Source: Azolla caroliniana | Lineage: Eukaryota; Plantae; Polypodiophyta | Reading direction: 5' to 3' | Assembly: GCA_043228905.1 (NCBI GenBank) | Contig: JBHGNT010000013.1 | Location: forward strand, 12,400,001-12,464,000 | DNA: 64,000 nt | In this document: one piece after another, positions 8,596 to 53,360 of the stretch | How the letters are laid out: the number at the start of each line of letters is the position of its first letter | Position numbering within the stretch: position 1 is the stretch's first letter | The notes under the pieces: generated by a model | Told to the model about the DNA's origin: nothing | The model's database searches: none | What the model saw: the letters and a program-made list of their open reading frames with translations, nothing else | Program-made: the position numbers and the translations under genes

Positions 8596-9563
8596 TAAAT
8601 AATTATTTTGTCTATTAATTATCTTGTGTATTGTTCTGTATAATCTTGTGTATTGCGGAATATTTTTGTGTATTGTTGTTGCCTATAGACATCTTAAATA
8701 CGTGTCTTTTTTTTCGGAAATATTAGGGTTTAAATATGTCAAGCCAAATGGAAGGGGAAGGAGGGTGTTTAGAATTACCCCTTAATGATCATCAAGATAG
8801 GGATGATGCTATTAGGACACAACAAGCGATACAAAAGTATTGGGCAGAAAAAAAAAAACATCATCAATTGTTGAAGGATACGAAAGCCACACTTACTAAA
8901 GGTAAAGATAGTATTGGTTGGGATATAGGTCTAAATATCATTGAGAATGGAAGTAATGAGACTACTATCATAGAGAGAAAGGTTGTAGACTATTTGAATG
9001 TTCAAACCAAGCACATCAGCAATGAAGACAAGAAGGTAGTACTTTATGAAATATTAAATGATCCATCGATAAAGGAGTTAGTTGATTGTGATGGTCTTAA
9101 TGCAAACATAACATATGTACTAGTAAATAATCTCCGTAATAGTTTCGTATCCATGAGCAGGTCAGAAAATGATCTTGTCTTAAAAAGGTCTAGTCTAATG
9201 ATGCTACTTAATAGTAATGACGATATTAACATCAATGTGTTATCTAAGGTAATTGGTGTTAGTAGAAAAAGTGTGTACAATAGATTGAACCGGATAGTTT
9301 CCTCAGGTGAAGGAACTAGTCTACTAAAGTTAACAACAGATGTAAGACAATGACAACCATAACATCAGAAATCAAGGATATAATCACAATATTTTGGACT
9401 AATATGAGTAGGGTTTCACCAATAAGAAGGATTTATGCATGAAACGTGTTGAAAGGATTTATGCAAGAAACGTGTTGGAAGGAGTCAATATGAGGAGAAT
9501 CCCATTCATCTTCTTGATGTTCCTTAGGTATTTACATTTACCTCAACATTTGTTTTGACTTTT

Positions 9564-12557
9564 TGTTACCCGTAAGAATATATTGGGAGGCATAAGGGTA
9601 TGTGTAATGATGTGGTTGATGTGTATGTATAATATGAATGAGTGTGTGAGGATGAGTATGTGTATGTGTATGAACACATGCACATTTGTGTGCATGTGTA
9701 CAAAGGTGAGAAAGTGGGTAAGTAATGTAACTCCCTACTTGTCTCATTCTTTATTTGTAACAGTTACCTCTTGTACTATATAAACCCACCCATGGGGCAT
9801 AATGGAACATAGCTTTTTCCCTCTCATTTTATGTTTGTCTCATTGTTTCTCTTTCCTTCTCTTTCTCTCACATGTAACCCCCTTGGGAGGGGGGTGGAGC
9901 TATTCTAGGCTTCACCCCCCACCCATCAACACTTTTGGCACGCCCAAACGGACGACCCTCCTTTGAGAGGAAGTCTATCCCTCACTCTCCCTCTTTGTGT
10001 GTTTGTACGTCTGTCTATTGTGTATGTCTCGCCCCCGCCCCATCCTGTCACAACCTCTTAGAGTTTTTAGGGTTTGAAGATCGCCATCGCTCCACCTCCA
10101 CGGAGCCCCAACCTCTCATACCTCGCACGGATGTTGTCGCTGCTCCCGAATGCCCTCCCAATCGTGCCATCTCTTTCGACAACTTAGGCCTCATCAAGGT
10201 CGCGGAAAGCTTAGGAGAGAATGGACACCCTCAAGTCGTTGCAAGGTGGGGTGAGCCACAGCCTCAGAAGAGCATACAGAAACCCACTCTGTGCCGATCT
10301 CCTTGCCTCGTCTCGCAAGCTCCCCCATCGCCATGGCCTCTCTTGGCTCCCTCCTCGCTTCTAGGCTCCTGAAGCGCGTTTCTTCTTCGTCTTCCTCCTC
10401 TTCTCCTGCATCTCTGCTGCACCTAAACCTAATCTCTTCCAGAGGCTTTCATGGCGACCATCATGCAACGGCCCCCTCCAAGAGCCTCTTTGGCATTGCT
10501 TGTGCCTCCAGCTCTAAGTTTGCGGGAGGTGATATCATTGGTATCGATCTCGGAACTACTAACTCTTGTGTCTCTACCATGGAAGGAAAGATTGCTCGTG
10601 TTATTGAAAATTTCGGCACATCGGATGAGGACTGTCTGAGGAAGGGAAAAGCAGCACGACATCTCCAGAATCATAAGGAGAGTTTCTGAAGGTAGTGAGC
10701 CAGCTAGCTTTGCCAAATAGATGATCTATCAGAGAAAAGGCTAACAGAATATACGTGAAGCATCCATCACCTATGGCCTTTTGGAGAGGATGGAGTATTT
10801 TACCTCAATCCTCTAGTAGAGCTATGATTACTCTATAGATGTTGTGCTTGCGGAACAACACCTTCCATCTAACCACCCTGTGACTGTGTGCCTCTCATTA
10901 GAGGATGTTTCTATAGGGCATTATTCCTTCAGGGAAGAGCCTGTTGGACCTATGTTCTATGCAACCTTCAATCAGCAATAGACTAATATACCCTATGAAA
11001 TCTTCACGTATTGAGAAGGCATTTCCAGCAACCTCACTAGAGCTTTGCACTCTGCTTGTCACCGCACTAAGCTGATTTATAGTGCATACATAGGATCAAG
11101 GATTACTCTCGAGCAAAAAGGCTTTGTAATTATACCACAATGACAAACAGAAACTAGTGGTTTCACAAGTACTGCCATCACTTTTTAGTACCCATTGGGT
11201 GGTTCAAGATTCAGATATCTACATCTCATGTCCACTGGCGACATAGTCTCCATCTTCCTCATTGATAATGGCCTCTCTCCTATGAAGATTAAGGACAACC
11301 GACAATCGGTGAATTTCTTCTCTATGAAACTGAAAGAGGGTGATGTTTTAGCGGCCCATTGGAATCCGAGAGCCAAGAATGATGGACAGTATTCGCACCG
11401 GGGCCACTTCGGCGTAACCCCCGTTGGCCGCTATCACCGCCGTCATTCGCTAGAATCGAAATGGAAGCAAATGGTTCGTAGCCCTATATTGATATGTCCT
11501 TATGTGGTTCCTAGCAAAAAGAAGGTCAAGCAAGATATTGATGATGTCGAAGGAAGGGGAAAAGAAGGAAGGTTGATTCAAGTGGAAAGAGGGAAAATAA
11601 TCAACAAGGGCGATTTTCCAGAATGAAGTAGAGAAGATTCAGAAAAGTGACGAAGAGGAAACAAGAAGAAGATCGAGACTAGACAGACACATAAAGAAAA
11701 AGATAGAAGAAGAAGAAAAAAGAAAAAGAGGTGCAATTGATAGAATTTTAAAAAATGACAAGGCCAAAGAAGACGGAATTTCAAAACTTGTAGGGAAGAG
11801 AGGAGAATTTCGAAAACTCAAGGGTAAAAAAATAATTTGAGGGTAAAAAAAAAGAAAAAAAGAAATTTTTTAAAACCAAGGGGTACAAATCATGAAATTT
11901 CAAAAACACAACTCACATGATGAAAGAAAGAATACACAAACGCACAACACGATTTCACGACCCATGCCACATTGAACTAGTCGATTGGTATATGATCCAA
12001 TCGTGACTTGTGCTGACCGAACGAGAAGGTTCGAGTCAAGCAAAGCTCCGATCAAAGTTATTGATTGTAGAGCAGTGATCCGGTCAAGGGATTTCCGATC
12101 GTTGAGATGACCGATGGAGTTCCGCTCAAGAAGAGTTGCCATGGCGAGTGGGTTCACCGTGCAATGCACTATCCCACAGGCGTGCCATGTGTTACTTGTA
12201 AGAATATACGGGGATGCGTAAGGGTATGTGTAATGATGTGGTTGATGTGTATGTATAATATGAATGAGTGTGTGAGGATGAGTATGTGTATGTGTATAAA
12301 TACATGTACATTTGTGTGCATGTGTACAAAGGTGAGAAAGTGGGTAAGTAATGTAAATCCCTACTTGTCTTATTCTTTATTTGTAATGGTTACCTCTTGT
12401 ACTATATAAACCCACCCATGGGGCATAATGGAACATAGATTTTTCCCTCTCATTTTGTGTTTGTCTCATTGTTTCTCTTTACTTTTCTTTCCCTCACACG
12501 TAACCCCCTTGGGAGGGAGGTGGAGCTATTCTAGGCTTCACCCCCCACCCATCAACA
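9564..12557 (+). mobile_element. Non-autonomous LTR retroelement (LTRs 9564-9931 and 12190-12557) inside the transposase intron
   Basis: Two similar 368-bp direct repeats TGTTAC...TCAACA. Flanks CTTTT/CTATT (5-bp TSD, one mismatch). TATA box at about 9777. tRNA-Arg-type PBS TGGCACGCCCA at 9936. No recognisable gag or pol. Confidence 0.9.
10333..10612 (+). pseudogene. HSP70: Captured 5' fragment of mitochondrial HSP70 (transit peptide plus start of ATPase domain)
   Basis: Ser/Arg-rich presequence MASLGSLLASRLLKRVSSSS..., then DIIGIDLGTTNSCVSTMEGKIARVIEN (Hsp70 signature 1, DnaK/mitochondrial type). Similarity stops abruptly. Confidence 0.88.
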
Positions 12558-13795
12558 CTATTGAGCTTAGTTAGTTAGCTTATTAGCTACCTCTGAATAT
12601 GACCATACCAGAGTAGCTAATTACCTACCACAAAATATGACCATAGTTATAGCTTAATAGCGATTCCCAATAGCTAATTTAGCTATTACTAGCTAATTCG
12701 CTACTAGAATAGTTAATTAACTACCTAAGAATATAGAACATAGCTATTTAGCTACCAATCATAGTTATTTAGCTACCACAATAGCTAATAAGTTGCCTAT
12801 AACAATAGCTAATTAGCTACCAGACTAGTTAATTAGTTGCTTATGACTATAGTTAATTAGCTACCAGAATAGCTAATCCCCTACCAGAAAAGCTAATTAG
12901 CTACCTAAGAATATGAGCATAGCTATTTAGGTACCAGAATAGCTAATTAACTTTGTATGACTATAGCTAATTAGCTACCAAAATAGCTACTTTAGTTATT
13001 ACCAGCTAATTAGCTACTAGGATAGCTAATTAGCTACCAAAATAGCTAAATAGCTACCAATCATAGCAAATTAGCTAGCACTCACAACTAATTAGCTACA
13101 AGAATAGCTAATTAGTTGCCTATGACTATAACTATTTCGCTACCATAATAGCTAATTAGTTACCTAAGAATATGAGCCTAGCTATTTAGCTACCTGAATA
13201 ACTAATTAGCTAGCACTCACAACTAATTAGCTATTCTGCTAATTAGCTGCCTCTGACTATAACTATTTCGCTACCATAATAGCTAATTAGTTACCTAAGA
13301 ATATGAGCATAGCTATTTAGTTACCAGAATAACTAATTAGCTAACTCGTTAATTAGTTGCATATGACTATAGCTAATTAGTTGTCATGATAACTAATTAG
13401 CTATTCACAATAGCGAATTTAGCTATTACCAACTAGGATAGCTAATTAGCTACCAATCATAGCTATTTAGCTACCAGAATAGCTAATTAGCTGCGTATGA
13501 CTATAGCTAATTAGCTACCAGATTAGCTAACTAACTATTCTCAATAGTTAATTTAGGTATTACCAGCTAATGAGCTACTAGGATAGCTAATTAGCTACCG
13601 GAATCGCGAATTAGTTGCCTACGACAATTAGCTACCACTTAGCTAACTAGCTATTCCCAATAGCTAATTTAGCTATTACCAGCTAATTAGCTACCAAAAT
13701 AGCTAATTAGCTATCAATCCTAGCTATTTAGCTACTAGAATAGCTTATTAGCTGCTATAACAGGTTTGGAGCATAACTAATAAGCTAATTAGTAT
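12558..13795. repeat. Satellite built on the palindrome TAGCTAATTAGCTA
   Basis: Dozens of degenerate copies of TAGCTAATTAGCTA with variable short spacers. Confidence 0.95.
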
Positions 13796-19139: not shown

Positions 19140-19877
19140 GTGTAGCTAATTAGTTACATTTTTGCTAATTAGGTAAGCCGTATAAAGTGTGCAAACTATT
19201 TAGCTATTATGGTTGTAGTGTAGTAGCTAATTAGCTAACATGTAGTCAATTAGCTACGTGGTAGCTAATTAGCTAAATATGGTGCTAGCTAATTAGCTAC
19301 TATAGCTAAAGTATGGTAGTAGCTAATTAGCTACCACTTAGCAAATTAGCTACTGTACTAAACTATGATAGTAGCTAATTAGCTACTGTACTAAACTATG
19401 GTATTAGCTAATTAGCTACTATACTAAACTATGGTATTAGCTAATTAGCTATTGTACTAAACTATGGTAGTTGCTAATTAGCTATTGTACTAAACTATGG
19501 TAGTTGCTAATTAGCTATTGTACTAAAGTATGGTAGTAGCTAATTAGCTACTGTACTAAACTATGGTATTAGCTAATTAGCTACTGTACTAAACTATGAT
19601 AGTAGCTAATTAGCTACCACTTAGCTAATTAGCTAGTGTACTAAACTATGGTATTAGCTAATTAGCTATTGTACTAAACTATGGTAGTTGCTAATTAGCT
19701 ATTGTACTAAACTATGGTAGTTGCTAATTAGCTATTGTACTAAAGTATGGTAGTAGCTAATTAGCCACTGTACTAAACTATTGTAGTAGCTAATTAACTA
19801 CCACTTACCTAATTAGCTACTCAGCTAAAGTACTAAAGTATGGTAGTTGCTAATTAGCTATTGCACTAAAGTATGGT
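19140..19877. repeat. 33-bp tandem satellite containing TAGCTAATTAGCTA
   Basis: Unit GTACTAAACTATGGTA(T/G)TAGCTAATTAGCTA(C/T)T with period 33. Confidence 0.95.
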
Positions 19878-22781
19878 GGAGGAGAATACCGGGGTCAGTT
19901 CGAGGAGTATTGTCGGTCGAAGGGAATCCGGCTCGAATTTAACGTGCCGAAGACGCTGGAACTAAACGGGTTGGCCGAAAGTATGAACCGGACAATAATG
20001 GAGAGAGTCCGGAGCATGCTCGCACATGCCAAGTTACCCAAGACGTTTTGGGCTGAGGCATTGATGACGACGACCTATGTGATAAACAAATCACCCTCAG
20101 TACCCTTGGGAGGAGACTCACCTTAAAAAGTATGGACCGATAAAGACGTGTCTTATCGGCATCTGAATGTGTTCGGGTGTCTCGCATATGTTCATGTAGC
20201 AAAGAACAAGAGAGCAAAGCTGAATCCAAAGTCCAGGCCATGCATATTCCTTGGATACGACAATGATGAGTTCAGTTACCGGGTGTGGAATTTGGTCAAC
20301 AAGAAGGTGTTCTAGAGTCGAGACATAGTCTTCATGGAAGAAAGGACCATTGCTGAGTAGGAGTCGGAGACGAAGGTGATAAACTTTGGATCATCCAATG
20401 AAAACCAGTTTGAGGACACAAGGACATACCCGGTTGAAAACCGGATGTTAGTTGGTAACCGGATGACACTCGACGAACCGGCCGGATACGGACAAGAAAC
20501 CGAACCGACCGAAGAAGAAGAAGAAGAAGACATCGGAACCGGACAAGATCCTGAATCGGATTCAGATGAGCAACAAATGGAGGAACCGGTAGTCAGAAAC
20601 CAAGGATAGAGATATCCTCTCCAAGAGAAAAGAGCCCCCCGAAGATTTTCGGATACAAAGCATGTGTTGCTAACCAATGAGGGGGAGCCGGAAAGCTTCG
20701 AAGAAGCAAAGAGAGAAACCCACAACCGCAAGTGGTTAAGTGCCATGTAGGATGAGACGGATTCCCTGCATGAGAACCACACGTATGAACTAACAGAGTT
20801 GCCAAAAGGGAAGAGATCACTCCGGAACAAGTGGGTGTACAAGCTGAAACCGGGAGACTCCGGAAATCCACCAAGGTACAAAGCCTGGATCGTGGTGAAG
20901 GGCTTCCAACAGAAGAAAGGAGTGGATTTCGATGAGATCTTTGCCCCAGTAGTAAAGATGACATCCATCCAAACGGTACTGGGCATAGCGGCAAGCATGG
21001 ACCTCGAGGTAGAGCAACTGGATGTCAAGACGGCATTCCTACATGGCGACCTTGAAGATGAGATCTACATGCATCAACCGGAAGTATTTGAGAAGAAAGG
21101 GAAGGAGCACCTAGTGTGCCGACTGAAGAAGAGCTTATATGGGTTGAAGCAAGCTCCCCGACAATGGTACCAGAAGTTAGACTCCTTCATGACCGACCAA
21201 GGGTACCACAAAACGTAGGCCCACCACTACGTGTTTGTGAAAAAATTTGACGGAAGAGGTTTCTTGATACTCCTATATGTGGATGATGTGCTGATCGTCG
21301 AACGAGACCAAGTCAAGATACGAATGCTGAAGAAGGCTCTGAGTTGGACCTTCTCAATGAAAGACTTGGGGCCGGCAAGATAGATATTGGGAATGCACAT
21401 CATCCGGGACCGGCCGAAGAAGTTGTTGTGGTTGTCATAGGAGAAGTACGTGACAAAGGTGCTTCAATGGTTCAACATGTCGAAGGCAAAGCCGGTCGGA
21501 TCTACACTTTCAGCAAACTGCAAGTTATCCGGAAAACAAAGTCCGAGGATAAAGGCGGAGAAGAAGGATATGATAAAGATACCATATGCCTCTACCGTCG
21601 GAAGCCTAATGTACACGATGGTATGTACTAGGCCGAATATCGGATATGCATTCGGAGTTGTGTGGTTCATGAGCAATCCTAGAAGAGAGCACTTGAACGC
21701 GGTCAAGTGGATATTCCGGTATCTGAAAGGCACCTCGAGTATGTGCCTCTAGTTTAGCTTCTGTAAACCCCAACTTCATGGATTCACGGATTTGGATATG
21801 TGGGCTGATGCGGATACCGGCCAGTCTACATCCGGATATGTCATGACTTATGAAGGGGGAGCTGTTTCGTGGTAGTCGAGGCTGCAAAAGACAGTTGCGT
21901 TGTCAACCACGGCGGTGGAGTACATGGCAGCTATAGAAGCCGACAAGGAGATAATCTGGATGAAGGACTTCATCGGAGTGCTAGGGATCCAACAGGAGGA
22001 ATACCGGCTCTACTACGATAGTCAAAGTGTCATCCACCTTGCAAAGAACATGGCCTACCATTCCCGGACGAAACATATCCAGTGGAGGTACCACTAGATC
22101 CGGGAGAGAGTAGAAGATCAAGAGTTCGTGCTAACGAAGATCCACACGGAGGAGAACAGGTCAGATATGTTGACCAAGGTGCTAACAACCAACAAGTTGA
22201 ATGCGTGCTGAAAGCGGATTAGGCTGACGAGACATCCCATGATGGAGTGAACGGGGAGATTGTCGGGAAATCAGTCCCTCCGGATGGGATCCGGTGTTGA
22301 ATGAAGAGGACCTGGTGAGAACCGGATGAGAAGACATATTTGTAAATATGTTTTTGAGTAAGCCTATTGAGGCTATATTTTTAAATAGCCCTAAGTTCAT
22401 ATAATTATAAATATGGCTTAGGGCAATCACTTTATGTGTTAGTCAGATTGTTGGATGTGCATAACTGTTGTAAAGAGAGTGTGAGAAAGAGAGATACAAA
22501 GGGATACTTTGTTATAACCGCCAGCTGGCGAAGATACAGAGCTCGAGAACATTGCCTCTGAGTTTCTAAGTGTACCCTCTCTCTTCATAGTGTTAGTTTG
22601 GAGTCTGTGGGCTCTCGTGGTTTTTCCCTATTAGGGTTTTCCATGTAAACATCATGTGTACTCTCCATTCCTTGTGTGGGTACGTGCGTTCTCTCCCCAT
22701 TTCCCATTTCTGTGTTTCATCCTTAAACGAAGTGTTTCATTACTCAGTTGTGGCCAACAATATTCCGCGTTATTCCCTACA
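19878..22781 (+). mobile_element. pol: 5'-truncated Ty1/copia (Tnt1/Tto1-like): INT-RT-RH pseudogene, PPT, 3' LTR 22261-22781
   Basis: GGEY...AESMNRT, QLDVKTAFLHGDLE, LKKSLYGLKQAPRQWY, YVDD, HSRTKHI. PPT GGGGAGAT precedes TGTCGGGAAA...CCCTACA. Confidence 0.92.
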
Positions 22782-38655: not shown

Positions 38656-40885
38656 GCTCGGTTCCCGGTCCGACAACACTTCGTCCTCCCAAAACGTGAT
38701 AGATGTTCAACCATTTTCCCTTTTCTTTTATAGGCCGTCGGGGAGGGCCATCACATCCTGAATACATCATCTTTATTCTTTGTCCCTTCAGATAGAGATA
38801 CACATCAATTTCCTAGCTAATAAATGTGTACTACCTAGTATATTTACATCAGCTGACCTATTCCTAATTATGTACATCTTATCAATACTTGTGCCCGCGC
38901 GTAAGGGCCAGTTCAGGCTCTTATTCATCGATTCCTCCTAAGGCCGGTTTTCTTCACGACATCCACCCCCACAAAACCGTGCATCCACCGGTATGTGCCG
39001 GAGAGGGACAAATATCGGAGAAAACCGGCTCGCGGTCACCCGTCGCTCTCCGAACTGTTGTCCGCTCTGGTCTAGTCGTTGCCGTTGTCCGCGCTTACTA
39101 GGTCCGGTTCGCCTTCATGCCGCTTCTTGAAGTCCTTGATCCTCTTCCTGGCTACCGGCATCCCTATCCATGTCCCGTCGAGCTCTTCAAGATGGTAGGT
39201 GCCGTTGTCATTCGCGCTCGTTACGGCGTAGGGCCTGAACCAGCTCCTTGCGAACTTACACACCACCTTGTGCTGTTTGTCAAGACTGTTGTCGTACACT
39301 AGCACCCAGTCCCCTTCCTTAATCTTCTTTGGTCGTAGCCGGTGTGCTCGGTTGAACCAACCTTTGTTCCTTTCCCTTACCGCATGTAGCTTCACCTTTG
39401 CCCATTCCACGTCCTCCGGTCTTCACTCGAGTTGTCGAATCCACACCGCCAGTAGCTCTTCCCGATTCATCTCGTCTCTCCAGTCCACCACCGCCCACGA
39501 GGAGATCGTTCGCTCTATCGGCATGATCGGCTTTTGTCCATACATCAGCTCTGCCAGTAGGAACCTGGTTATCGAACTATGCGTAGTTCGGTCCGCCCAC
39601 AATGCATAAGGTAGGAACCACGGCCAATTCCCGACATGTCCTTCGCAAGCCCATACTAACGCCTTCCCAATCGGCATGTACCCGCACTCTACCTTCCCGT
39701 TCGCCACCGGATTGTATGCCGTAGTGAGGGAAAGCTTAACCCTTAGCCGGCTGAACAACTCCTCGGCTTCCTGCGTATCCAGCTCCCCCCGGTCAGCCAC
39801 GATCTTCCAATGCACCCGTACCGGCACACCACTTCCTCAATTAGGAACTGGCACACGGCTGCAGACATCTTGTTTGGCAATGCCCGGCCCTCCACTTGGT
39901 TTGTCAAATCTTCTCTTGCTAGCACCAGGTACTGCATCTGCCCTACCCCCATCGGCATCGTCACCAAGTCCACCATCCACTTGAAGTGGACGGTCGGCGG
40001 GTAAGTCAGGTGCAGCTCGTCCCGATGCTGGACTACAGAATGCATCTGGTAGCTCTCACAAGTCGTCACGAACTGATGAATGTCCTAGTACAATCCTGGC
40101 CACCAATACTTCTCCTTCAACTTTTCGAACGTGGCCCACGTCCCGCGATCTCCGGCCCAAGGACTATCGTGATACGTTGTTAGCAACACCCCCTGCTCTT
40201 CCTTCTTCGCCACTACTTGGAGTGGGAGGCCGCCTCGCTTCTTCGGCTGTTTCCATATGCTTCCTTCCTGAAGGATGAACCGGTACGCTTTTTTCCGAAT
40301 CCGGTTAGCCTCTTCTCTCGTCCACGCAGCGTATGGCGTCATCGTCTTTAGGAACCCGCCGATCTGGAGCCACTCCCCATCGTACTTGCCCTCGTCAAAC
40401 TCATTAAGCGCCAGAGTGCTCCCTTCCCTCGTCATCACGTAAGCCGACTTGAAGAAGTCCACGCCGACTTCCTCGTCCTCTGAATCCATGGCGTCTTCAT
40501 CGTCAAACCACACTCTCAAAAGCATGTCGACCATGGCGTTGTCCTTCCTGGAGATGTGCCGTATCTCCGAATTCAGGGACTTAATGTACGCGATCCACCT
40601 GAGCATCGCCAGGTCCGGCGTCGCGCATCCAGAAACCATACCGAGGATCGGTAGGCAGTCCGTCACGATTATCACCTCCGTCCCGATCAAGTAGTCTTTG
40701 TCGGCCTTGACCGCCGAAATGATACCCCAGAGTTCGCGTTTAACCTGGGCGTTGTCAGGAACTCTATTAAGGCAGAGAAGGAATTAGTACTAAAAGAAGG
40801 ATTAGTACTATTGTCGGGGAATAGTACTAAGACAGAGAAGGATTAGTACTATGAGAGGTGTCGAACTTTGAGAGAAGGAATGGGT

Positions 40886-40937
<52 letters not shown>

Positions 40938-41223
40938 ATGATGATGCGAAAGGTATATGTATTATATGAAGGAAGATATACAACAGTAGTTAGAAGGCTT
41001 AAGACTGGCGTTGAACCGATTTGGTTCGAACTAATGCCTTGCGCCTCCTTTTATAGTGTCTTCAGGAATACTCCTGAAGTTTCTAGAATGTTCCAGAGAA
41101 ATCTGGAATATACATCAATTTCCCAATAAAACCTAAGTGAAAATAATATCCTTCAAATTACAATTCATAACCTAATGGTAAAGTCTCGACCCGTGTAACA
41201 AAAGGTTATGGGTTCGAGTCTAG

Positions 41224-44200
41224 TTATGACACTATCCCCCCTTTAAAACGACGAGTTCCACGAGTCGTTTTGGATTGAGGACCCGGTTTCTCGGGATATC
41301 GTCGATGGAAGTCTTCTAGAAGAGCACGAGCATTGGTCACATTCTCGATCGGTTCCCAAGTACGCTCGCTGGGACTATATCCTAGCCAATCGACTAGATA
41401 GTAGAGCTTGTTGCGAACAATCTTGGAATCGAGGATGGCAGCGACCTCATACTCAGGTCCATCTTCGAGCTCGATAGGAGGTGGTGGTTGTATAGTACGT
41501 CCTGGGATAGTGCTCTCGTGATAGGGTTCGAGGAGAGAACTATGAAACACCGGATGTATCCGAAGTTGCGGAGGTAGCTCGAGACGAAAAGCGACATCAT
41601 TAATCTTCCCGATAATACGGAAAGGACCTAATCGCCGATAATCCAACTTCTCACATGGGCGAGTAGTCTTGATGTGTCGTCGTAGCAGCCACACCCGATC
41701 TCCAATGTTAAAACTGGATGGAAGTCGATGACGATCTGCGTAGTCCTTGTGTGATTGTTGAGCTTGCTGGAGTTGAGTAGATAAATCCGCTTGTATCTTG
41801 CGTAACCGCTCCAAACGATCCTCCGCGCAAGGATTTGTGGACACTTCTGGGGTTTCAAGGACACACCACCGGGGATGATATCCTGTATAAGCGTAGAATG
41901 GCGTGACTTTAGTCGATGCGTGGATAGCGTTATTATAGGCAAATTCGGCGAACTGAAGAATATCTGCCCAGTCATTCTGATGATAGTTGAGAAAGCACCG
42001 CAGATACTGCTCCAGTGTTTGATTTGTTCGTTCAGCTTGACCGTCGGTTTGTGGGTGGTAGCCGGAGGAGAGGTGACAAGTGACCTTCAGCATTTTAAAA
42101 AGGTGCTTCCAGAATTTTGACACAAACTGGGGTCCACGATCGCTGATGATATTATCAGGGAGTCCATGATGCCGACATACTTCCCGCATGACAATTTCGG
42201 CGGTGTCTTCACTAGATATTTCTTTAGTACATGGTAAGAAATGAGCCATCTTTGTATATCGATCCACCACTGTGAGAATCGCACTGAATCCCTTAGAGAC
42301 TGGAAGATCTGTAATGAAGTCAAGAGCAATGGATTGCCATGGCTTGCTTGGAATTGGTAATGGTTCTAATAAACCATATGGATGATGTCTTGGCATTTTC
42401 GCTCTGCAGCATGTATCGCAAGTCCGAACAAAATCTTCGACAAATTGTCGCATACGGGGCCACCAGAATGATCGTTGTACTAAATCTAATGTTTTAGTAC
42501 TACCAAAATGTCCTGCTGTATATGTGTCATGGCAGTTTTGTACTACTCGAAGGCGGCAAGAACCATTAGGAACATACAAAAGTTCTTTAAAGAAGAGTAA
42601 TCCATCACAGTATTTGAATTGCCGATAATCCGTACCTGGTGATTGTGATTGTGAACATGACGCTCGAGAGGGGTCAATTTGTGCTAGTATAGCTTGGGCG
42701 AAAGCGTCAGTCTTCAAGTCCTCACGTATAGTATTGGTAATGTCGGAATCCACGGGCATGTCAAAGACCTGTGCTGCTTGCAGTCGTGCTGGACCCAAGA
42801 TTACTTGCTTCTGGTTATCGAAAGCTGGCTCACCGGGACGTGGTGTTAGATACGAACGCCGTGATAATGCATCTGCCTTCCCTTGGTGCTTCCCCGGACG
42901 ATATGTAATTTTGAAGTCGAAGCGTGTGAGGAAGTGGGCCCACCGAGCTTGACGTCGATTCAGTACACGAGCATCTTGAAAGTAGGCAAGGTTCTTGTGG
43001 TCACTGAATACAGTGACCTGATGAGGAGATCCCTCCAGGAAATGCCTCCATTGCATAAAAGAATCAACTATTGCTAATAGCTCTTTATCATGAATTTCGT
43101 AATTGATTTCGGCGGCGTTAAACTTACGGGAGTGGAAAGCCACAGGATGTAGCTTCTCGTCGTTACCCTGTTGTGACAGAATGCTCCCCAATGCGAAATC
43201 CGATGCGTCAGCTTCGATAATGAATGGTTTTTCCGGATCCACATGACCTAAAATTGGAGCTGATGTAAACGCCTTCTTAAGACTCTCGAAAGCCATGTCC
43301 GTCTCTTTAGACCAAATGAATGATTGTCCCTTCCTGGTGAGCTGTGTGAGAGGCAGCACAATTTTTGAGTAATTTTGTATGAACTTCCGGTAAAAATTTG
43401 CAAAGCCTAGGAAGCATTGCACATCCCGCACCGAACGCGGAGTATGCCATTCTATCACCGTTTTGACCTTGGCTGGGTCGATAGATATGCCTTCTGAGGA
43501 GATGACATAGCCGAGAAACTCCACTTGGTTGCACCCGAAACTACATTTCTCTAACTTTGCATACAGACCATGTTCTCGAAGTCGTTTTAGTACTAATAGT
43601 ACATGAGAATCATGTTCTTCTTGGGTCTTTGAATAAACCAGTAGATCATCCAAATAGATGATCAAAAAATCATCCAAGAGATCTCGAAATATATCATTCG
43701 CCATGTGCTGGAAGACTGCTGGCGCATTAGTGAGTCCGAACGGCATGACCGTATACTCGAAGTGCCCATATCTGGTGCGAAACGCGGTCTTCCATTCATC
43801 TCCTGGTCGGATCCGTACGAGGTTATAGGCTCCTCGTAAGTCGATCTTCGTGAAGAACCTGGCACCGTTGATCCGTTCTAAAAGACTTGAGATAAGGGGA
43901 AGAGCATACCTATTTCTTACTGTGACCTTATTCAAGCCACGGTAATCTACAACGAGTCGAAGCGAGCCATCTTTTTTCTTGACGAAGAAAATGGGTGCGC
44001 CGGCTGGAGATTTCGAATGCCGAATGAAACCGTTCTCCAAATTCTCCTCTATATAGGCTCGAAGGACTTCTAGCTCGGTTGGTGACAAATTGTAGATCGG
44101 CCCCCATGGCGGCTCTTTTCCTGGTTGTAAGTCGATGGCGCAATCGTACGGCCGATGATGAGGAAGTGTGTTGGCTTGTACTTTATCGAACACATCAGCA

Positions 44201-44820
44201 TACTGACGATACTTCTCGGGAAGTTGAACGGTGGACTCCTCTTTGGTGGTACTGGAGGGTTGTACTGATATTGCGAAGAGAAACATTTCCTCCTTGCGCC
44301 CTTCCTCACGCAACTGACGTAGCGAAATGGTTGCAACCTTCTGGGTAGATCCTTGGGTTTGTCGCAACCGGATTTCCCTTGTCCTCCAATCTATGTCTGG
44401 GTTATGTAACTCGAACCATGGTAATCCTAAAACTATGGGATGTTCTGGAATACTAATAATATTAAATGATACTACACATGTTAAGTTATCTAGGACAATA
44501 TTAACGGGTTCCGACTCTTCTATGATATTACCAGAAGCAATGGGACGACCATCAATGACTACTACTGAGGCTGGACATGGGAGCTTTCTGAGAGATATCT
44601 GATGAGCTCGGGCAAAATTCCTATCCATGAAGCAAGAATTAGCTCCGGAATCTAGAAGGGCTACGGTATGTACTGGAGGGGTACTTTTAGTACTAACTGC
44701 TACTTGGGCTACGAACACATCACTAACTTGCTTAGAGGGAATGGAACCACTAATGGGCTGCACAGATCTAGGGCTGTCCAACCAAACGGCTCCTATTTTG
44801 GCTGGACTTAGTCGTTTAAC
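41224..44820 (-). CDS. pol: Pol (PR-RT-RH-INT-chromodomain), in the -1 frame relative to gag
   Basis: LLDSGAN; YLDD; IEADASDFALG; HDTYTAGH...CDTC; SDRGPQF; GPF module; chromodomain YEVAAILDSK...YLVDWLGYSPSERTWEP. Confidence 0.97.
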   Translation of the reverse strand, partial: VKRLSPAKIGAVWLDSPRSVQPISGSIPSKQVSDVFVAQVAVSTKSTPPVHTVALLDSGANSCFMDRNFARAHQISLRKLPCPASVVVIDGRPIASGNIIEESEPVNIVLDNLTCVVSFNIISIPEHPIVLGLPWFELHNPDIDWRTREIRLRQTQGSTQKVATISLRQLREEGRKEEMFLFAISVQPSSTTKEESTVQLPEKYRQYADVFDKVQANTLPHHRPYDCAIDLQPGKEPPWGPIYNLSPTELEVLRAYIEENLENGFIRHSKSPAGAPIFFVKKKDGSLRLVVDYRGLNKVTVRNRYALPLISSLLERINGARFFTKIDLRGAYNLVRIRPGDEWKTAFRTRYGHFEYTVMPFGLTNAPAVFQHMANDIFRDLLDDFLIIYLDDLLVYSKTQEEHDSHVLLVLKRLREHGLYAKLEKCSFGCNQVEFLGYVISSEGISIDPAKVKTVIEWHTPRSVRDVQCFLGFANFYRKFIQNYSKIVLPLTQLTRKGQSFIWSKETDMAFESLKKAFTSAPILGHVDPEKPFIIEADASDFALGSILSQQGNDEKLHPVAFHSRKFNAAEINYEIHDKELLAIVDSFMQWRHFLEGSPHQVTVFSDHKNLAYFQDARVLNRRQARWAHFLTRFDFKITYRPGKHQGKADALSRRSYLTPRPGEPAFDNQKQVILGPARLQAAQVFDMPVDSDITNTIREDLKTDAFAQAILAQIDPSRASCSQSQSPGTDYRQFKYCDGLLFFKELLYVPNGSCRLRVVQNCHDTYTAGHFGSTKTLDLVQRSFWWPRMRQFVEDFVRTCDTCCRAKMPRHHPYGLLEPLPIPSKPWQSIALDFITDLPVSKGFSAILTVVDRYTKMAHFLPCTKEISSEDTAEIVMREVCRHHGLPDNIISDRGPQFVSKFWKHLFKMLKVTCHLSSGYHPQTDGQAERTNQTLEQYLRCFLNYHQNDWADILQFAEFAYNNAIHASTKVTPFYAYTGYHPRWCVLETPEVSTNPCAEDRLERLRKIQADLSTQLQQAQQSHKDYADRHRLPSSFNIGDRVWLLRRHIKTTRPCEKLDYRRLGPFRIIGKINDVAFRLELPPQLRIHPVFHSSLLEPYHESTIPGRTIQPPPPIELEDGPEYEVAAILDSKIVRNKLYYLVDWLGYSPSERTWEPIENVTNARALLEDFHRRYPEKPGPQSKTTRGTRRFKGGIVS

Positions 44821-45977
44821 TCTTCTTCTAATTGGCTAAGGACATCAAATTTGTTTGCGAGATTCGGACTATTAGTACTATTAGGACTATTATGACTATG
44901 AGGACTATCAGAGATTCCTACTGAAATAGACTCGGGTTTAGTATAGTCAGAACTAACAACGACTTGGTTTACCTGCCTTCTTGGTCTATGGGGACAGTTT
45001 ATCGCGATATGCCCTGGTCCACCGCAATAAAGGCATAATCGGTTTGTTCGGCGTCGTTGCTTTTCCTCCTCCGATAGCGGCCCACGACGACGTGTAGTGT
45101 CAATTTCCATTGGAGTTGGAGTACTTACTGGAGGCGCATTATGTGACTCCCTTTGAAAAGGTTTTGCTACCACTGAGGCATAGGTAGGCTCGGATTTTGC
45201 CCTCGGCATCTGAAATTGCCGTTCCGAACGTCGCTCGAAGAGGCAGTTGTCACATCTGACCGCTCGACTGATTGCTTCTGTTAATGATTTTGGCTCTTCA
45301 GGGAAAGTCAAGAGTAAATCCTTGACATCGTTGCGTAGACCATAGCGGAACTGCTCCATCAATGCTTGATCATCCCAGGGGATATCGGCGGCGAGTAGGC
45401 GGAAATCTGCAGCATATGCGGAGGCTGGACGGTCACCTTGGCGTAATCGCCGGATTTTGTTGATTGCAGTCCTTATGCTGTCAGTATCTCCAAAACATGC
45501 TTTAAACTCACTTATGAATTCTTCAAAATTATTTAGTACTGGAGATTCCTTTTCTAGTAGCGGAGCGAACCATGCTAATGCTGAGCCATTTAACAACGTG
45601 CCTACTAAACCCACTCGTGATGCATCGGTGGGATATCGGGACGGATGCATTTGAATAACTAACCGTACCTGGTTAAGAAACCCTCTAAACTGCGATCGCG
45701 TTCCATCGAACTTCGTGGGAAGGCCAATCTTGGGTTCTTTATGAATCCCTTGTGCTCCGTGCCCTTGTTGTTGCATTGCTACGATGGTTGCTTCGAGTTG
45801 TTGCACGCGTAACGCAAGTTCCCCATGCTGTTGTTGCGTTTGCTGCTTTTCTAAGGAAATTTGCTGAAGATCCCCCAACAAGCGTTGATTTTCTTGTTCC
45901 AAAGCATGAAACTTCTCTTTCAAGCATTGAAATTCCGAGAAAACGGATTGATACTCTTCAGCGCTAACGGTGGCCAT
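44808..45977 (-). CDS. gag: Gag (coiled coil, PEG10/sushi-like capsid, CCHC knuckle)
   Basis: 389-aa ORF: LPTKFDGTRSQFRGFLNQ...LNGSALAWF, LRQGDRPASAYAADF, PMEID, CLYCGGPGHIAINC. Confidence 0.96.
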   Translation of the reverse strand: MATVSAEEYQSVFSEFQCLKEKFHALEQENQRLLGDLQQISLEKQQTQQQHGELALRVQQLEATIVAMQQQGHGAQGIHKEPKIGLPTKFDGTRSQFRGFLNQVRLVIQMHPSRYPTDASRVGLVGTLLNGSALAWFAPLLEKESPVLNNFEEFISEFKACFGDTDSIRTAINKIRRLRQGDRPASAYAADFRLLAADIPWDDQALMEQFRYGLRNDVKDLLLTFPEEPKSLTEAISRAVRCDNCLFERRSERQFQMPRAKSEPTYASVVAKPFQRESHNAPPVSTPTPMEIDTTRRRGPLSEEEKQRRRTNRLCLYCGGPGHIAINCPHRPRRQVNQVVVSSDYTKPESISVGISDSPHSHNSPNSTNSPNLANKFDVLSQLEEELND

Positions 45978-46211
45978 GGGATGAAGGAAAAGGGAAATAA
46001 GAGACTAATAGGAAAGGAGGGAGACAGAAGGAAGAGGGAGAGAAAAGACCAGACAGGCACCGGGAAATCGGTTCAAACTGTCAGGAACTCTATTAAGGCA
46101 GAGAAGGAATTAGTACTAAAAGAAGGATTAGTACTATTGTCGGGGAATAGTACTAAGACAGAGAAGGATTAGTACTATGAGAGGTGTCGAACTTTGAGAG
46201 AAGGAATGGGT

Positions 46212-46257
<46 letters not shown>

Positions 46258-48137
46258 ATGATGATGCGAAAGGTATATGTATTATATGAAGGAAGATATA
46301 CAACAGTAGTTAGAAGGCTTAAGACTGGCGTTGAACCGATTTGGTTCGAACTAATGCCTTGCGCCTCCTTTTATAGTGTCTTCAGGAATACTCCTGAAGT
46401 TTCTAGAATGTTCCAGAGAAATCTGGAATATACATCAATTTCCCAATAAAACCTAAGTGAAAATAATATCCTTCAAATTACAATTCATAACCTAATGGTA
46501 AAGTCTCGACCCGTGTAACAAAAGGTTATGGGTTCGAGTCTAGTTATGACAGGCGTATCCTTGCTATCACTCGCTAAGTACTTTCACCCCGAACCGGATG
46601 GCGAACCTCGTGTTGTTCTCGTCCTCCTGGTTGATCACCCATCCTATCCCAATCAGACTTGTGTCTACGGTCACGTAAATCGGGACCTCCTTACCGTAAA
46701 GTGCTTTGAAGAGTGTCGGTGATGCGGTAAGCTCTTCTTTCAGTCTCCGGACCACCTCCATATGTTTCCCGCTCCACTCGAACTTGCACCCTGTCTTTAG
46801 CAACCCATACAGTGGCTCCGCGACGTGTGTGTAGTGCGGAATCCAGATGTGGTAGAACGCGCACGCGCCCAAGAACCTCCGGACTTCCATAACCAACTTG
46901 CAGTCTTCCTTCATTGTGGAGATGGCTTCTACCTTTGCCCGGGATGGTTTTTGGCCATAAGGTCCGCACAGGTGACCGACGACCATGATCTCTAACTGCC
47001 CGAAAGCCGATTTCTCTCCGGAGAAGGTGAGTCGTGCGCTCTCGAGTCTCTGTAGCACCCTCTCGCAGTCGTCGATGTGGTCCGCCACGAATCTCTGACA
47101 ACCGTCTGACCCAACCGATTCGTCCTCATCTTCCACCAGGCATCCTTTTATCAGGATGTCGTCCAAGAATGGCATGGTGATTTTTGGAATGCACTCCTTC
47201 AGCACTTTGTTCATCGCATTCACCGTGTGCGCCACCGAGTTGGTCCCTCCTTGTGGTAGGGTACACATCCACACTAGGCCGAGAGGAGTCCGCATCCTCC
47301 ACGGCTAGTTGGAACTGATTGTACCCCGAGTACAGGTCACTGACTGAATAGATCGACCTTCTGACGAAGGCCTTCACGAACTCGTCAATGGTCGGTCCGA
47401 TTCCTGTGTTCTGAATGGTCACTTTAATGACTGGTTCCAGGTCTTGAATGAAGTGCAGCGTGTTGTTCTTCTTCGACACGGTAAACCACCGATTTGAATA
47501 TGGGGCACTCGACGGCTCTAGGATGCCCATCTCCACCTTCTACTTCAATAGCTCCATCAACTTCGGGATGTGAGCTCTTGGTGCCGGAATTGGCTTGAGA
47601 TTCCACGACACATGCGGTACTATGAAAATCACCATTGGTTCCACGATCGTTGAGTCTACGCACCCGATCTCCTCTGGTGAGAATGTGAAGGCCTTCCCGT
47701 GCCTTCTGAGCATTCTCCAAAACCGCTCCTCCTCCGCTGATAGTAGGAAGCCACCCCCACCAACCTTGAGCTCCCGTAGCGTTGTGTTGATGAACCGGTG
47801 TTCTATGTCGGCCGGATTCTGCAAACTTGGGTCCGACGCGACCCCTTTCATTCGTTCCTCATTGCCCTCTGGTAAGGGTGCCGCAATTGGCCTCACCTTC
47901 TAGTCGACAGTCTTGTACCTCGTATCCATGCGGGCCGTTCGATCCAACTTGACCCTTTCCCCGAAGTCGGCAATGACTTCGTACATCTCCACCGAGTTAA
48001 CTGAAATCACTCGGTCTTCACTGATGCCTTCTTCGATCACCTTTCCCATTTCCCCCAGGGTGTCATCGAAAGAGACCACCTCCACGGCGCTGCTAATTTC
48101 TTCGTCGGGACTGAGGGCTCCGCACTCTCTAAACCGT

Positions 48138-49359: not shown

Positions 49360-52300
49360 TGTCGCGGTATTCCGTGGGTACGTGTAGGATCTTAGGTAGG
49401 ACCGCGGGGGTCTTGGACTAGGGAGACGGATGGTGGAGTCCTTAAGCTTTGTAGGCTTCGGTTCGGAATCGGCTTCCGGCTCCAACAAATGTAGGGTTTC
49501 ACAAAAGCCGGTTCACCGCGAATATGGACCCGACTCAAATATGTTACAAGGGAGATAGATATACACTAACATGAATATATATTACAAGAGTCTTACAACA
49601 AGACGGTTACATGCACCGAATCCGGTGGCTATTACAAACAACCGGCTAATACATCAAGATAAGAATAGGGGACCGGTAAAGGCGAGTCAAGTGGGCCGCC
49701 GGGACCACGACGTCCATCGTTGGTCACGCCCCGAAGATGATGGAGTGTTCCTGTGCCACTTTGCCCTCGCTTCTCGAACCGGCCGCCATGCGAAACGCTC
49801 TCCATTGAGGTGAGAAAAATCAAACCTCCAATTGCCGCCACCGGAATGTCGAAGAGCCGCTGTCGTAGAAACCCCTAACCAAAACCGTAACTCGACCAAG
49901 AAGAAGGTAAACCCAAAACCCCAAGCTTATGAAACCTAGATCACATAAAGAAACCTAAAACCCTAAATCCCCCATAATCTCTCACAAGATGAAGAATGAG
50001 ACGAAGTACTAACCCTCCACTCAAGAAGAAGGAATCAAACCCATAAGACAAAGAAGAAGAAGACCCTAAATGAAACCCTAAACGAAATAGGCTGAAAAGA
50101 CCAAAGTAGAAACCCTAAGGGAACAAGAATAAGATGAAGAGGAAGCACACTACCAAACCCTAGACCTGAGTGGTATACCCTCCTAATTCAAAATAGGCAA
50201 CCCTTCACAAGGGACCCCTCCCTTCCTTTTATAGCCCAAGGAGGGAGGAATGTTACAATGTGGGATCAATACTCCCGTTTATTCTATACATTGTTTTCCT
50301 ACTATACATGTGTAGATGCTGCACACCACCGACTTGCCCTATTCCACCTCGGTTTCACACTGTAGCCGAAAATCTTCACGACATCCACCCCCACCAAACC
50401 GCACGTCCACCGGTATGGGCCAAAAAAGGAAAAGGGTGAGAGATTTCGGCGACGGTGATCAACCGGGTTTTGCGCCTTCCTGGCACCCGACCGTCTTGTT
50501 GGCTCCTTACCGTCCCCGACTCGTCGGCTCCATCCGATCCACCATATCTGACGTTCGCGCCTCCTTCCCGATCGGTCCTCCCGAACACCTCCACACACTG
50601 ACTCTCTCCGCTCCACGCTCGCCTTCCGTAGGCTCTTCCCATGTGCCATTGTCGTCCTCTGAATGCGTGCTCGTTCTTCGGTCCTTAGGTGACCCCATTA
50701 CGCGCTCCTTCTTTCTACCTCACTCACTCCCCTCTCTCTCGATAGAGCGTGCCGTCAGCCCGACCTCCGTGTCGGTGCCCTTCGCGTCATCCTGGTTGCC
50801 ATCCTGTGTTATTGCCCATCGCCTTCGTCCCCTCGTCGCCACCTTCCTTCTCCTTGGTCTTACGTTGCCTCAGCGGCTTGAACTGCCAAAGTCTCCAGAA
50901 CCGGTGTGGAGGATCCCTCTCCGGCCTTCCGTTCGAGACCACCTAGACTGGAAACCATCCTTCGCGCCTATACTCCTTTTCGGCACCTCCGTGTGCCGAC
51001 ATTCCCTCGTAGTTCAGCACCACCGTGGCGAATTCCGATTACCCTTCCACACGCTATCATGAAGAAAACCGGTGTCGTGAAGATTTTCGTCCACAAGCGG
51101 AAACCCGAGCAACGAGAGCCAAAGAGCGATGTGCAACGTTGCACACGTACATAATGTATTTGTAATAGTAATAAAGGTATAAAGGTGATGTGGTTGTACG
51201 CGCATCCACGCCAGAGAGAGAGAGAGAGAGGTACTATGCGGTACATAGGTACCTAGTTGTTTGTGAGGAGGTGGGAGTTAAGGGGCCATCAATCTCACCT
51301 TCCCCCAAATCAAGGCAAATATCCCCTTTGAATGAAAGGGGATATTTTAGTCTCACTTTTGTAAGCGGTCTTCCCTCCTTGTGCTATAAAAGGAGAGAGA
51401 AGGCACCATTGTGGGGGTTGCCTATTTTGTGTGAGTAAGGTATACCACTTAGTCGAGGGTTCTACTTCTTCCCATTTTGTTTTAGGGTTAGGGTTTCGGT
51501 TAGGGTTTCAGTTAGGGTTTTCTTCTTGGGTTTTCCTTTAGGGTTTTTCATATAGTCGTTCGGTGCGGCCATGGCGGCCACCATTTGTTGTAATCATTCA
51601 TTTCTTAATAGAACTTCTTCTTGAGTATCTTGATTGCATCTTCTTCTTCTATCATAATGTCATATTCGTTCTCTTATCCTCTTGAGCTAATCTTTCTCCT
51701 CCACTCCCTAGTCCAAGACCCCCGTGGTCCCGCCCTTCTACACGCACGCGCGTAACAACGCGACATATTTGGTGAACCCGACGTGAAGGGCGGCAAGGGA
51801 GCATGGAGATTGAAGAAGACTTTGACTTCGAGGAGATGATGGCAAAGATTGTGATGGAAGCCGGACGGAAGATGGTGAAGCGAGATGCAGCTCAACAAGC
51901 CGTCGAAAGGGTGGTCAATCGAGTCGGCCGGTTCAATGGGAATGAGGTCCTAAAAATTTTGGGAGCCTACAAGGCCGAGATGGCGAAAGGGGGCGTGGAC
52001 GAGGCGATGCAACTGGAGTATTTTCCGCGAGTGGCGCCCGTATCGGTGCACAAGGACGTCAAGGAGCTATGAGAAGCTCACGAGTCATGGGAGTCCTTCA
52101 AGGGAGCTCTATTGGAAGCGTACGGATACGCGAAACCGGAGTGGGTATACGGGCAACCCGATGGGGAGCGGTCGGCTACAACATGGCCCGCGAACGGTGG
52201 AGAAGAGAGAGCGGCGAGTGAGTACGCACTACCGCTGGAAGAGAGCTCAACGCAAAACGGTTCGGAGGAGCTCGACCTAGAAGCGCTAGTACGGGAGGCA

Positions 52301-53360
52301 TGCGAGCTTGTGAAGGGGAAAATCGAAGCCGAAGAAGGGCTTATTATGGAGTCGAGCCGGAGGCGATCGAAGGATGAGGAGGCCGAAAGAGAATGATACA
52401 TCGGTACCACGGGAGAGGGTGCGGAGCGAGCCACCCTCTCGACATGCGGAGAAAGATCGATCGAGGACGAGGTCGGGGACGGTGAGGCGGCGATCGCAGA
52501 TTCGAGCGGACATGAGGGAGTTCGGGCATGGAGGCCCGAAACATCGAGCGGGGAGAAGACGGGCGGTGTTGCCGTGACCTTACGCACACCGGGCCAAGAG
52601 ACTCCGGCAACCGGCCCGAGAGCCGGTGTGAGACCTAGAGTGACGGGCGGTGGCGGCGGCAAGGCGGGCGACCACGACGACGACGATGTGGGAGAGGGTG
52701 TGGGAAGAGCGACTCTCTCATCTTGTGGCGAATGGACGGCCATGGAGGCCGGTAACTACGGATTCGGGACATGGCAGCCCGAAACATCGAGGGAGGAGGA
52801 GACAAGCGGCGGTGCCGCGACCTTATGCACACCGGGCCTAGAGACTCCGGCAACCGGCCCGAGAGCCGGTGTGGGACGTAGAGTGACGGACGGTGGCGGC
52901 GACAAGGCGGGCAACCGAGACAACGGTAAGGAGACCGTCGAAGAGGAGGCGGCAAGAATAATTGATGCTTGCATATACGGAGGCGGGGTAGCCACGGACG
53001 ACTATGTCCGAATGGAGGTGGCTACGGGCATAGCATCGATGGGCGGCGGCGTTGCTTCCTTACACGCACCGGTTCAAGAGACCCCGGCAACCGGCCCGAG
53101 TGCCTGCGTGAGACCTAGGGTAATGAACGGTGGCGGTGGCAAGGCGGACGACCACGGCGACGATGTGGGAGAGGGTGCGGAGCGAGCGACCCTCTCGACT
53201 TGTGGAAAGAGGACGGCCATGGATGAGGCCGATATCTACGGAGCAATGGACGCCACTTCGAGAGTGGGCGAAAGTTTCGGGACGCGGTTGCCCGAAACGT
53301 TCTACGAGGATTTGGTGAGCATACTTGAGGGTTGCGAAATCGAGGATGAAGAGGAGACGA

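Follow-up and report, generated by a model that had tools for sequence, protein, structure and literature searches.

The 64,000-nucleotide stretch of Azolla caroliniana DNA analysed here (contig JBHGNT010000013.1, positions 12,400,001 to 12,464,000; hereafter the window) carries, at its own positions 9564–12557, an element recognisable as a long terminal repeat (LTR) retrotransposon by its LTR pair, TG...CA termini, target-site duplication (TSD) and primer-binding site (PBS). It is a variant of this class, since the 30 nt preceding its 3′ LTR contain 47% purine and do not qualify as a polypurine tract (PPT); an earlier note had described a 2-nt spacer and no purine tract at this place, and that description holds. 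The place of the PPT is taken by a block of 40 nt starting at 12148, which is a sense copy of positions 49–76 of tRNA-Arg(UCU) with one base missing and a hairpin insert at position 58. With its T-arm-like segment and hairpin, the feature is larger than noted earlier. The sequence comparisons presented below suggest that host tRNA-Arg(UCU) probably primes the plus strand at this block. The element consists of the following parts.

9559–9563, no strand: left TSD, 5 bp, 4 of 5 positions matching 12558–12562
9564–9931, plus strand: 5′ LTR, 368 bp, TG...CA, with a TATA-like box at 9777–9784
9932–12189, plus strand: internal region, non-autonomous, without gag, pol or extra-ORF (open reading frame) remnants
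9936–9945, plus strand: 5′ PBS, after a 4-nt spacer from the LTR; exact 10-nt complement of the 3′ end of tRNA-Arg(UCU)
9959–9974, plus strand: probable further PBS segment, which complements the tRNA-Arg(UCU) anticodon arm; weak when taken alone
10333–10611, plus strand: captured 5′ piece of an Hsp70 gene, a transit-peptide-like stretch followed by the first Hsp70 motif
12148–12157, plus strand: sense copy of tRNA positions 49–58 (5′ strand of the T-stem, T-loop), 8 of 10 matching
12158–12170, plus strand: 13-nt insert with a 4-bp hairpin, between tRNA positions 58 and 59
12171–12187, plus strand: sense copy of tRNA positions 59–76, one base missing, with the CCA end; its minus strand is a tRNA-binding-type site at the place of the PPT
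12188–12189, plus strand: 2-nt spacer between CCA and the 3′ LTR, no indel among the variants listed in 4 runs
12190–12557, plus strand: 3′ LTR, 368 bp
12558–12562, no strand: right TSD, 4 of 5 positions matching the left copy

The Window Element and Its Two tRNA-Related Sites

The 5′ site at 9936 reads TGGCACGCCC, and positions 12171–12187, ending 2 nt upstream of the 3′ LTR, read ATCCCACAGGCGTGCCA. The 64 kb contain the 9-mer TGGCACGCC at exactly two places, 9936 on the plus strand and 12187 on the minus strand, and the chance of its falling within 5 offsets of an LTR is about 1e-5. The reference for both sites is a whole tRNA-Arg with anticodon TCT, CCA included, found at locus L002 of the survey described below; in the window itself ARAGORN found no tRNA, and Rfam gave weak matches only, all below the gathering score. 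Both sites match the L002 tRNA, which bears out the proposal of a tRNA-Arg-type site at each internal end, and the concern that the block might correspond to no tRNA 3′ end is removed by its match to the 3′ part of this molecule. Relative to the tRNA, one base is absent from the block at the junction of the T-stem and the acceptor stem, and because of this absence the block is not a canonical 18-nt PBS. The view that the minus strand holds a second canonical-looking PBS therefore survives as regards its PBS-like layout but not as regards its canonical form. Two other LTR elements in the window have G-rich 3′ ends, with 11–12 purines in the last 15 nt.

The two LTRs of the element differ at 20 positions (94.6% identity, Kimura two-parameter distance 0.057), and with this 5.7% divergence the copy is not recent. 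Its interior gave no match in tblastn with 8 query proteins of the clade, and none of the 16 interior ORFs scanned against Pfam belonged to a retroelement family; as no gag, pol or extra-ORF remnant was found there, the window copy is non-autonomous. The captured Hsp70 piece (Pfam HSP70, E 7e-6, profile positions 1–26) is likely of organellar, mitochondrial type.

Distribution of the Block

A pattern scan of metagenome contigs revealed at least 123 stretches in at least 120 loci, in independent assemblies, from which the site counts given below are drawn; at one locus (L100) the upstream block is absent, and this locus is excluded from the subsequent tallies. By LTR start, the 106 usable sites form 25–37 distinct clusters. 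Sister copies and many other families thus carry the block instead of a PPT, so it is not a peculiarity of one copy. At 117 of the 120 sites no purine run within the last 30 nt exceeds 4, although 18 of those 30 nt, and likewise the 2-nt spacer, are set by the search pattern. At 9 coding loci, 50–265 nt separate the last ORF from the LTR, with no purine run beside the LTR.

Support independent of the search pattern comes from the depth of run contigs and from contig bridging. Over 11900–12300, a depth peak at 12152–12193 is present in all four runs, which cover three organisms, and in run X13 the depth drops to 705, from 34,410, immediately inside the LTR. Loose contig ends are clustered at 12148–12158 and 12193–12195 and, together with the depth drop, indicate that the other families share only the block and the first bases of the LTR. 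The junction of block and LTR is bridged (5 of 32 pieces listed) with at least 31 nt on each side and 29–40 letters differing, and the 5′ junction is bridged in the runs too. Among the variants listed within the 17-mer at 12171–12187, the frequent ones are 12171 A>G (59% in run X1) and 12178 A>G (50% in X1, 80% in X13); both shift the 17-mer toward the tRNA and leave wobble pairs on the minus strand. At the 5′ site, 9946 A>G accounts for 6,489 of a depth of 7,650 (85%) in run X1, and the PBS match extends over 11 nt in most sister contigs versus 10 nt in the window. Viral contigs yielded 0 matches to the 30-nt block and no integrase relative; two matches of viral contigs to a shorter pattern, without the hairpin and the LTR context, were taken as chance.

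The same runs show a peculiarity of the LTR end. In all four, the contig depth at window positions 9875–9931 is about tenfold higher than elsewhere in the junction, and this segment constitutes a conserved hairpin-like U5 motif common to many families.

Architecture of the Block

The insert is 13 nt long in 81 of 105 sites and 14 nt long in a further 20. Its hairpin is perfectly paired in 54 of 90 distinct blocks, while 1000 shuffles averaged 18.3 and reached 29 at most. In a 33-row alignment, two-sided changes were found at all four pairs, with 20 cells against 5.6 ± 1.7 in a shuffle that ignores the relatedness of the rows; slid controls were lower as well. The polarity of wobble pairs in this inner hairpin gave no signal as to the strand, G-T and A-C being about equal. 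The T-loop is conserved to various degrees over the 105 sites: T54 in 102, a pyrimidine at position 55 in 103, C56 in 93, a purine at position 57 in 98 and A58 in 72. In tRNA, position 58 is methylated and unable to pair, yet it is needed for the T-loop fold.

The common changes in the block, G to A and T to C, keep wobble pairing between the tRNA and the minus strand. For the window site, the predicted duplex of the tRNA 3′ half has −44.0 kcal/mol with the minus strand versus −19.7 kcal/mol with the plus strand, and at 91 of 95 sites the minus-strand duplex exceeds the stability of controls in which the upstream part is shuffled; these energies use RNA parameters as a proxy for RNA–DNA. The sense RNA of the window block is itself predicted to form a long hairpin (−17.9 kcal/mol).

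Two other functions of the block were considered and set aside. A role as a Pol III B-box does not fit, the consensus motif being broken by the insert, and targeting to tRNA genes does not fit the presence of tRNA-like genes in only 2 of 120 loci.

Coding Relatives, Orientation and Lineage

The orientation of the block is given by coding elements, to which the window copy is tied by shared sites and not by protein. In L008 the order is integrase, a 1170-aa ORF, block, LTR and forward PBS, and gag lies downstream of the forward PBS in L038, L054, L056 and L063. Of 73 LTRs, 57 have TATAAA on the block strand and 6 have it on the opposite strand. It follows from these three observations that the coding elements carry the block at their 3′ end as a copy in tRNA-sense orientation. 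Matches to gag, integrase and the extra ORF all lie on one strand except in L005, where the exception is a neighbouring element downstream of the LTR. The extra ORF (650–1170 aa) is in sense orientation, coiled-coil-like and located between integrase and the 3′ LTR, as in L008 (1381–4890), L013, L023 and L026; it matches no Pfam family and has only 5 relatives, all unnamed.

The nearest full Gag-Pol proteins are 74–76% identical to the L008 integrase, and the corresponding value for the L054 gag is 80%. Two of these proteins, P0001 and P0003, which provide the tie to L054 (gag, 80%) and L008 (integrase, 74–75%), have the order Gag, protease (PR), reverse transcriptase (RT), RNase H (RH) and integrase (IN), as in Ty3/gypsy elements. 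The four RNase H acidic motifs of P0001 are apparently intact by eye. An extra archaeal-type RNase H (aRH) gave no Pfam match in P0001, P0003 or P0004, and was present in 13 other matches; no chromodomain was found in these three proteins or in the L008 integrase. In a quick IQ-TREE analysis of RT-RH (38 rows, with 19 short rows and 8 no-hit rows left out and without references for Phygy or Selgy), the clade joins liverwort (Riccia) proteins (SH-aLRT 84), outside the aRH-bearing Tat branch. It is also separate from the Tagetes/Tanacetum/Pinus branch, which we take to be Athila-like in its Tagetes/Tanacetum part, and the PBS of the clade is of the Arg type. The clade of the window element is a non-chromovirus Ty3/gypsy group without a PPT and with the block 2 nt before the 3′ LTR. 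Its relatives would suggest a seed-free land plant as host.

Design of the 5′ Primer Sites

Coding-type 5′ PBSs have a three-part design: an acceptor match of 13–14 nt, a hairpin, and CGAAC (anti-T-loop) at offset 31–33, present in 9 of 11. CGAAC occurs in 4.4% of 36-nt background windows and in 0 of 17 short-type sites, 3 of the latter having been assigned by eye; in L023 and L049 it stands at offset 29, outside the tally of 9 in 11. These three parts recur on the minus strand of the block, where the anti-T-loop stands at offset 31. This layout indicates that the PBS-like strand of the block is minus-strand DNA, the template for the plus strand.

The window 5′ PBS has no anti-T-loop. At all 17 short-type sites the best further tRNA match is the anticodon arm, pairable at 14 of 16 positions in 11 sites, a level reached by 1–9 of 100 shuffles; the sites are related, and the match counts about once. 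In the window this segment (9959–9974) is pairable at 14 of 16 positions, 12 of them exact, and 3 of 100 shuffles reach that.

The 5′ PBS is of another type at three coding loci (L023, L049 and L054), where its complementarity to the block is limited to 4 nt and the Arg(UCU) block is nevertheless kept; in L054 the second-type PBS, gag and block stand in order on a single contig. Because these loci keep it, pairing with its own PBS is not what maintains the block. The second PBS type, which also occurs at one L031 site, is likely complementary to another tRNA-Arg, which would give two tRNAs per element. At the L031 site the anticodon-arm segment is altered to fit anticodon CCG, and this suggests tRNA-Arg(CCG) as the second primer; a human look-alike of this PBS is labelled Arg or Trp. 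A further relation between the two ends concerns position 67: of 27 site pairs, 23 combine G with a PBS C or A with a PBS T. Of the other four, one belongs to the window, one joins sites of different elements and two lie in the rearranged L062. This covariation fits two putative isodecoders, of which the A67 tRNA was not found.

Proposed Plus-Strand Priming

The element strand is the plus strand, on which gag is preceded by the 5′ PBS and the last ORF is followed by the block. By analogy with known retroelements, a tRNA would prime minus-strand DNA at the 5′ PBS, followed by strand transfer and the clearing of RNA by RNase H. The minus-strand DNA would then expose the complement of tRNA positions 76–59, with one tRNA base bulged, and of positions 57–49, the 13-nt hairpin being looped out opposite position 58. 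Host tRNA-Arg(UCU) would anneal to this strand, and its CCA end would be extended by reverse transcriptase, the two spacer bases possibly serving as the overhang for integrase trimming. The window copy encodes no enzymes and would depend on those of coding relatives that share its block. On the whole, we incline to the view that these elements form a lineage without a PPT, in which both strands would be started by host tRNA via the same three-part site (in RNA and in minus-strand DNA, respectively), with two tRNAs in some families.

Several observations speak against such priming. The fixed one-base deletion and the insert reduce the complementarity to the tRNA. GTGGG and CCCAC pair mutually, which accounts in cis for some of the conservation. 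Little weight attaches to the wobble argument, since G-to-A and T-to-C are transitions, and G-to-A is also the common methylation change. Two changes, C56T (12 of 105) and G59T (14 of 124), break pairing, and at position 67 the window does not follow the covariation. Positions 60–76 and the spacer were fixed by the search pattern, which makes elements with a PPT or with another tRNA invisible to it; many contigs with the order block, LTR, PBS may be assembly-collapsed; the 9 sites with CGAAC trace to about three LTR families that are related, so their count overstates independence; and the tRNA sequence derives from one low-coverage contig (L002, coverage 2.2).

The best of the alternatives, although unlikely, is a primer encoded by the element itself. 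The RNA of the block, as a mimic of the T-arm, would escape RNase H by means of its hairpins, be cut after CCA and prime in the manner of a PPT. The CCA end is located where the end of a PPT would be, the sense RNA folds into the long hairpin mentioned above, the inner hairpin covaries, and neither the deletion nor the insert requires tRNA pairing. However, the element's own RNA would pair with the minus strand regardless of its sequence, and the identity with one tRNA across 25–37 families would then need another cause. The T-loop fold should depend on A58, which is the least conserved of its positions, and in one family of 13 members a G53A change disrupts the sense-strand T-stem. The mirroring of a true PBS layout by the minus strand also fits priming by tRNA rather than by a retained RNA.

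It is much less probable that the block serves to pair with the 5′ PBS of the same element, circularising or masking the RNA, with the plus strand primed from something unrecognised. The two sites are complementary over 10–11 nt, the predicted duplex between the two regions reaches −34.7 kcal/mol, and the covariation at position 67 would be expected of such pairing. Nevertheless, the three coding loci and the L031 site with second-type PBSs keep the block despite a complementarity of 4 nt, the coding PBSs match the tRNA over 13–14 nt and the block over only 11, and no alternative purine tract lies beside the LTR.

Replication from transcripts of either strand, each site serving as the PBS in turn, had been suggested in the earlier note and is highly improbable. 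It would agree with the symmetric ends and with an LTR inverted against a 5′-type PBS in L062, but L062 is a single low-coverage contig. The coding matches, apart from L005, and most of the TATAAA motifs are on the tRNA-sense strand, and the second strand would still need a tRNA-type primer. A one-off inversion, chimera or assembly artefact, conceivable for an old copy patched with a captured gene piece, is refuted by the at least 123 stretches from independent assemblies, by the 25–37 LTR clusters that include coding elements, and by the contigs of four runs.

The rearrangement itself is seen at two loci, L062 (oriented 346–880 and 2240–2570) and L024 (546–870), where an LTR is inverted directly against a 5′-type PBS and another LTR, likewise inverted and with its block, comes after it. 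This arrangement could stem from flipping between the two inverted 10-nt sites or from an assembly error.

If host tRNA does prime the plus strand, reverse transcription in these elements would be near-symmetric, and RNase H would no longer be needed for primer selection. A thriving multi-family lineage without PPT priming indicates that this step can be rewired, and it offers a natural system for studying what reverse transcriptase requires to start when the template is DNA and how the end of U3 is defined. The element RNA differs from the tRNA by the missing base and the hairpin insert, which makes the primer identifiable by sequencing. Annotation tools that expect a PPT, or that orient elements by the best PBS, would miss or reverse such elements.

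Comparison with Known Systems

Plus-strand priming from a PPT is regarded as the general rule in LTR retrotransposons and retroviruses (PMC5371799, PMC6317226, PMC10886601). Ty3, the canonical Ty3/gypsy element, resembles the clade in its tRNA-primed minus strand, its Gag-PR-RT-RH-IN order and its split PBS, in which the acceptor stem and the T-arm of the tRNA pair with separate segments (PMC5371799). Split PBSs are found in both Ty3 and Ty1, whose plus strands are primed from a PPT (PMC5371799). The clade differs from Ty3 in that its RNA carries a tRNA-identical block with CCA 2 nt before U3, and no PPT.

A link to Tat/Ogre had been suggested from the PBS type. Elements of the Tat/Ogre/Retand group share with the clade a tRNA-Arg PBS (Ogre 89%, TatIII 64%), a 5-bp TSD and an extra ORF between pol and the 3′ LTR (PMC6317226). 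Tat is, however, defined in REXdb by the extra aRH domain (92–100%; PMC6317226), and the label fails because the closest full Gag-Pol proteins (P0001, P0003 and P0004) have no aRH; they also lie on a branch apart from aRH elements. In the available text of that source, a PPT is the usual 3′ feature and no tRNA copy is reported there. Athila elements are similar in having neither aRH nor chromodomain, a 5-bp TSD and 3′ extra ORFs, but their primers are Asp, Asn or Ala tRNAs in contrast to Arg in the clade (PMC6317226). Phygy, from a moss, and Selgy, from a club-moss, likewise have no aRH and no chromodomain; they differ by a 4-bp TSD, no extra ORF and a Trp (Phygy) or Ala (Selgy) primer (PMC6317226), whereas the elements described here have a 5-bp TSD, an Arg PBS and an extra ORF of up to 1170 aa.

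Helenus elements (TRIMs, miniature retrotransposons with terminal repeats) are also non-autonomous LTR elements with tRNA-derived sequence, but in these the tRNA-like piece serves as a Pol III promoter within the LTR, and the PPT is kept (PMC10886601); the author found no priming role for it (PMC10886601). The self-priming elements (Tf1/Sushi, Tcn1, TAR) share a non-standard primer, which in their case serves the minus strand and derives from the 5′ end of the transcript, as opposed to a plus-strand site here (PMC6317226). A tRNA site replacing the PPT was found in no report in the open-access literature searched, although subscription journals, Repbase and the large REXdb supplements may hold one, and the available parts of PMC10986323, PMC6786969, PMC3286476 and 10.64898/2026.03.20.713144 contain nothing bearing on it. 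The clade is a variant of Ty3/gypsy whose priming step is probably new.

Neighbouring Elements and Side Loci

The window element sits at the left edge of a self-complementary, AGCTAATTAGCT-rich tandem array (12570–13760); a similar array with a 33-bp unit lies at 19140–19880. On the minus strand at 40753–46551 there is a young chromovirus with LTRs 98.7% identical, a gag and an open 1203-aa pol with a chromodomain. At 51073–59909 and 63122–63803, a Phygy-like element with a 4-bp CCGG duplication is inserted in the LTR of a sister element. The neighbouring element (51073–59229) has a 4-bp NCGN duplication resembling that of moss Phygy, a likeness that would hint at a moss, and the long ORFs at 53957–56215 and 56736–58538 match no Pfam family.

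In the short LTR group, two members carry 5′ pieces of different Hsp70 genes, of organellar type in the window (10333–10611) and of cytosolic type with frameshifts in L062 (oriented 1395–1640). WD40, tyrosinase, BACK or decarboxylase pieces occur at other loci. This short LTR family may capture host mRNAs often.

At L002 (1190–1265), the whole mature-type tRNA-Arg(UCU) with CCA adjoins the broken end of an extra ORF in PBS orientation. This copy may be a fossil of reverse transcriptase reading through the whole primer, or the contig may be chimeric. Two tRNA-Lys-like copies with a shared 3′ tail at L066 (1062–1137 and 2756–2828) probably represent a tRNA-derived family of short interspersed nuclear elements (SINEs).

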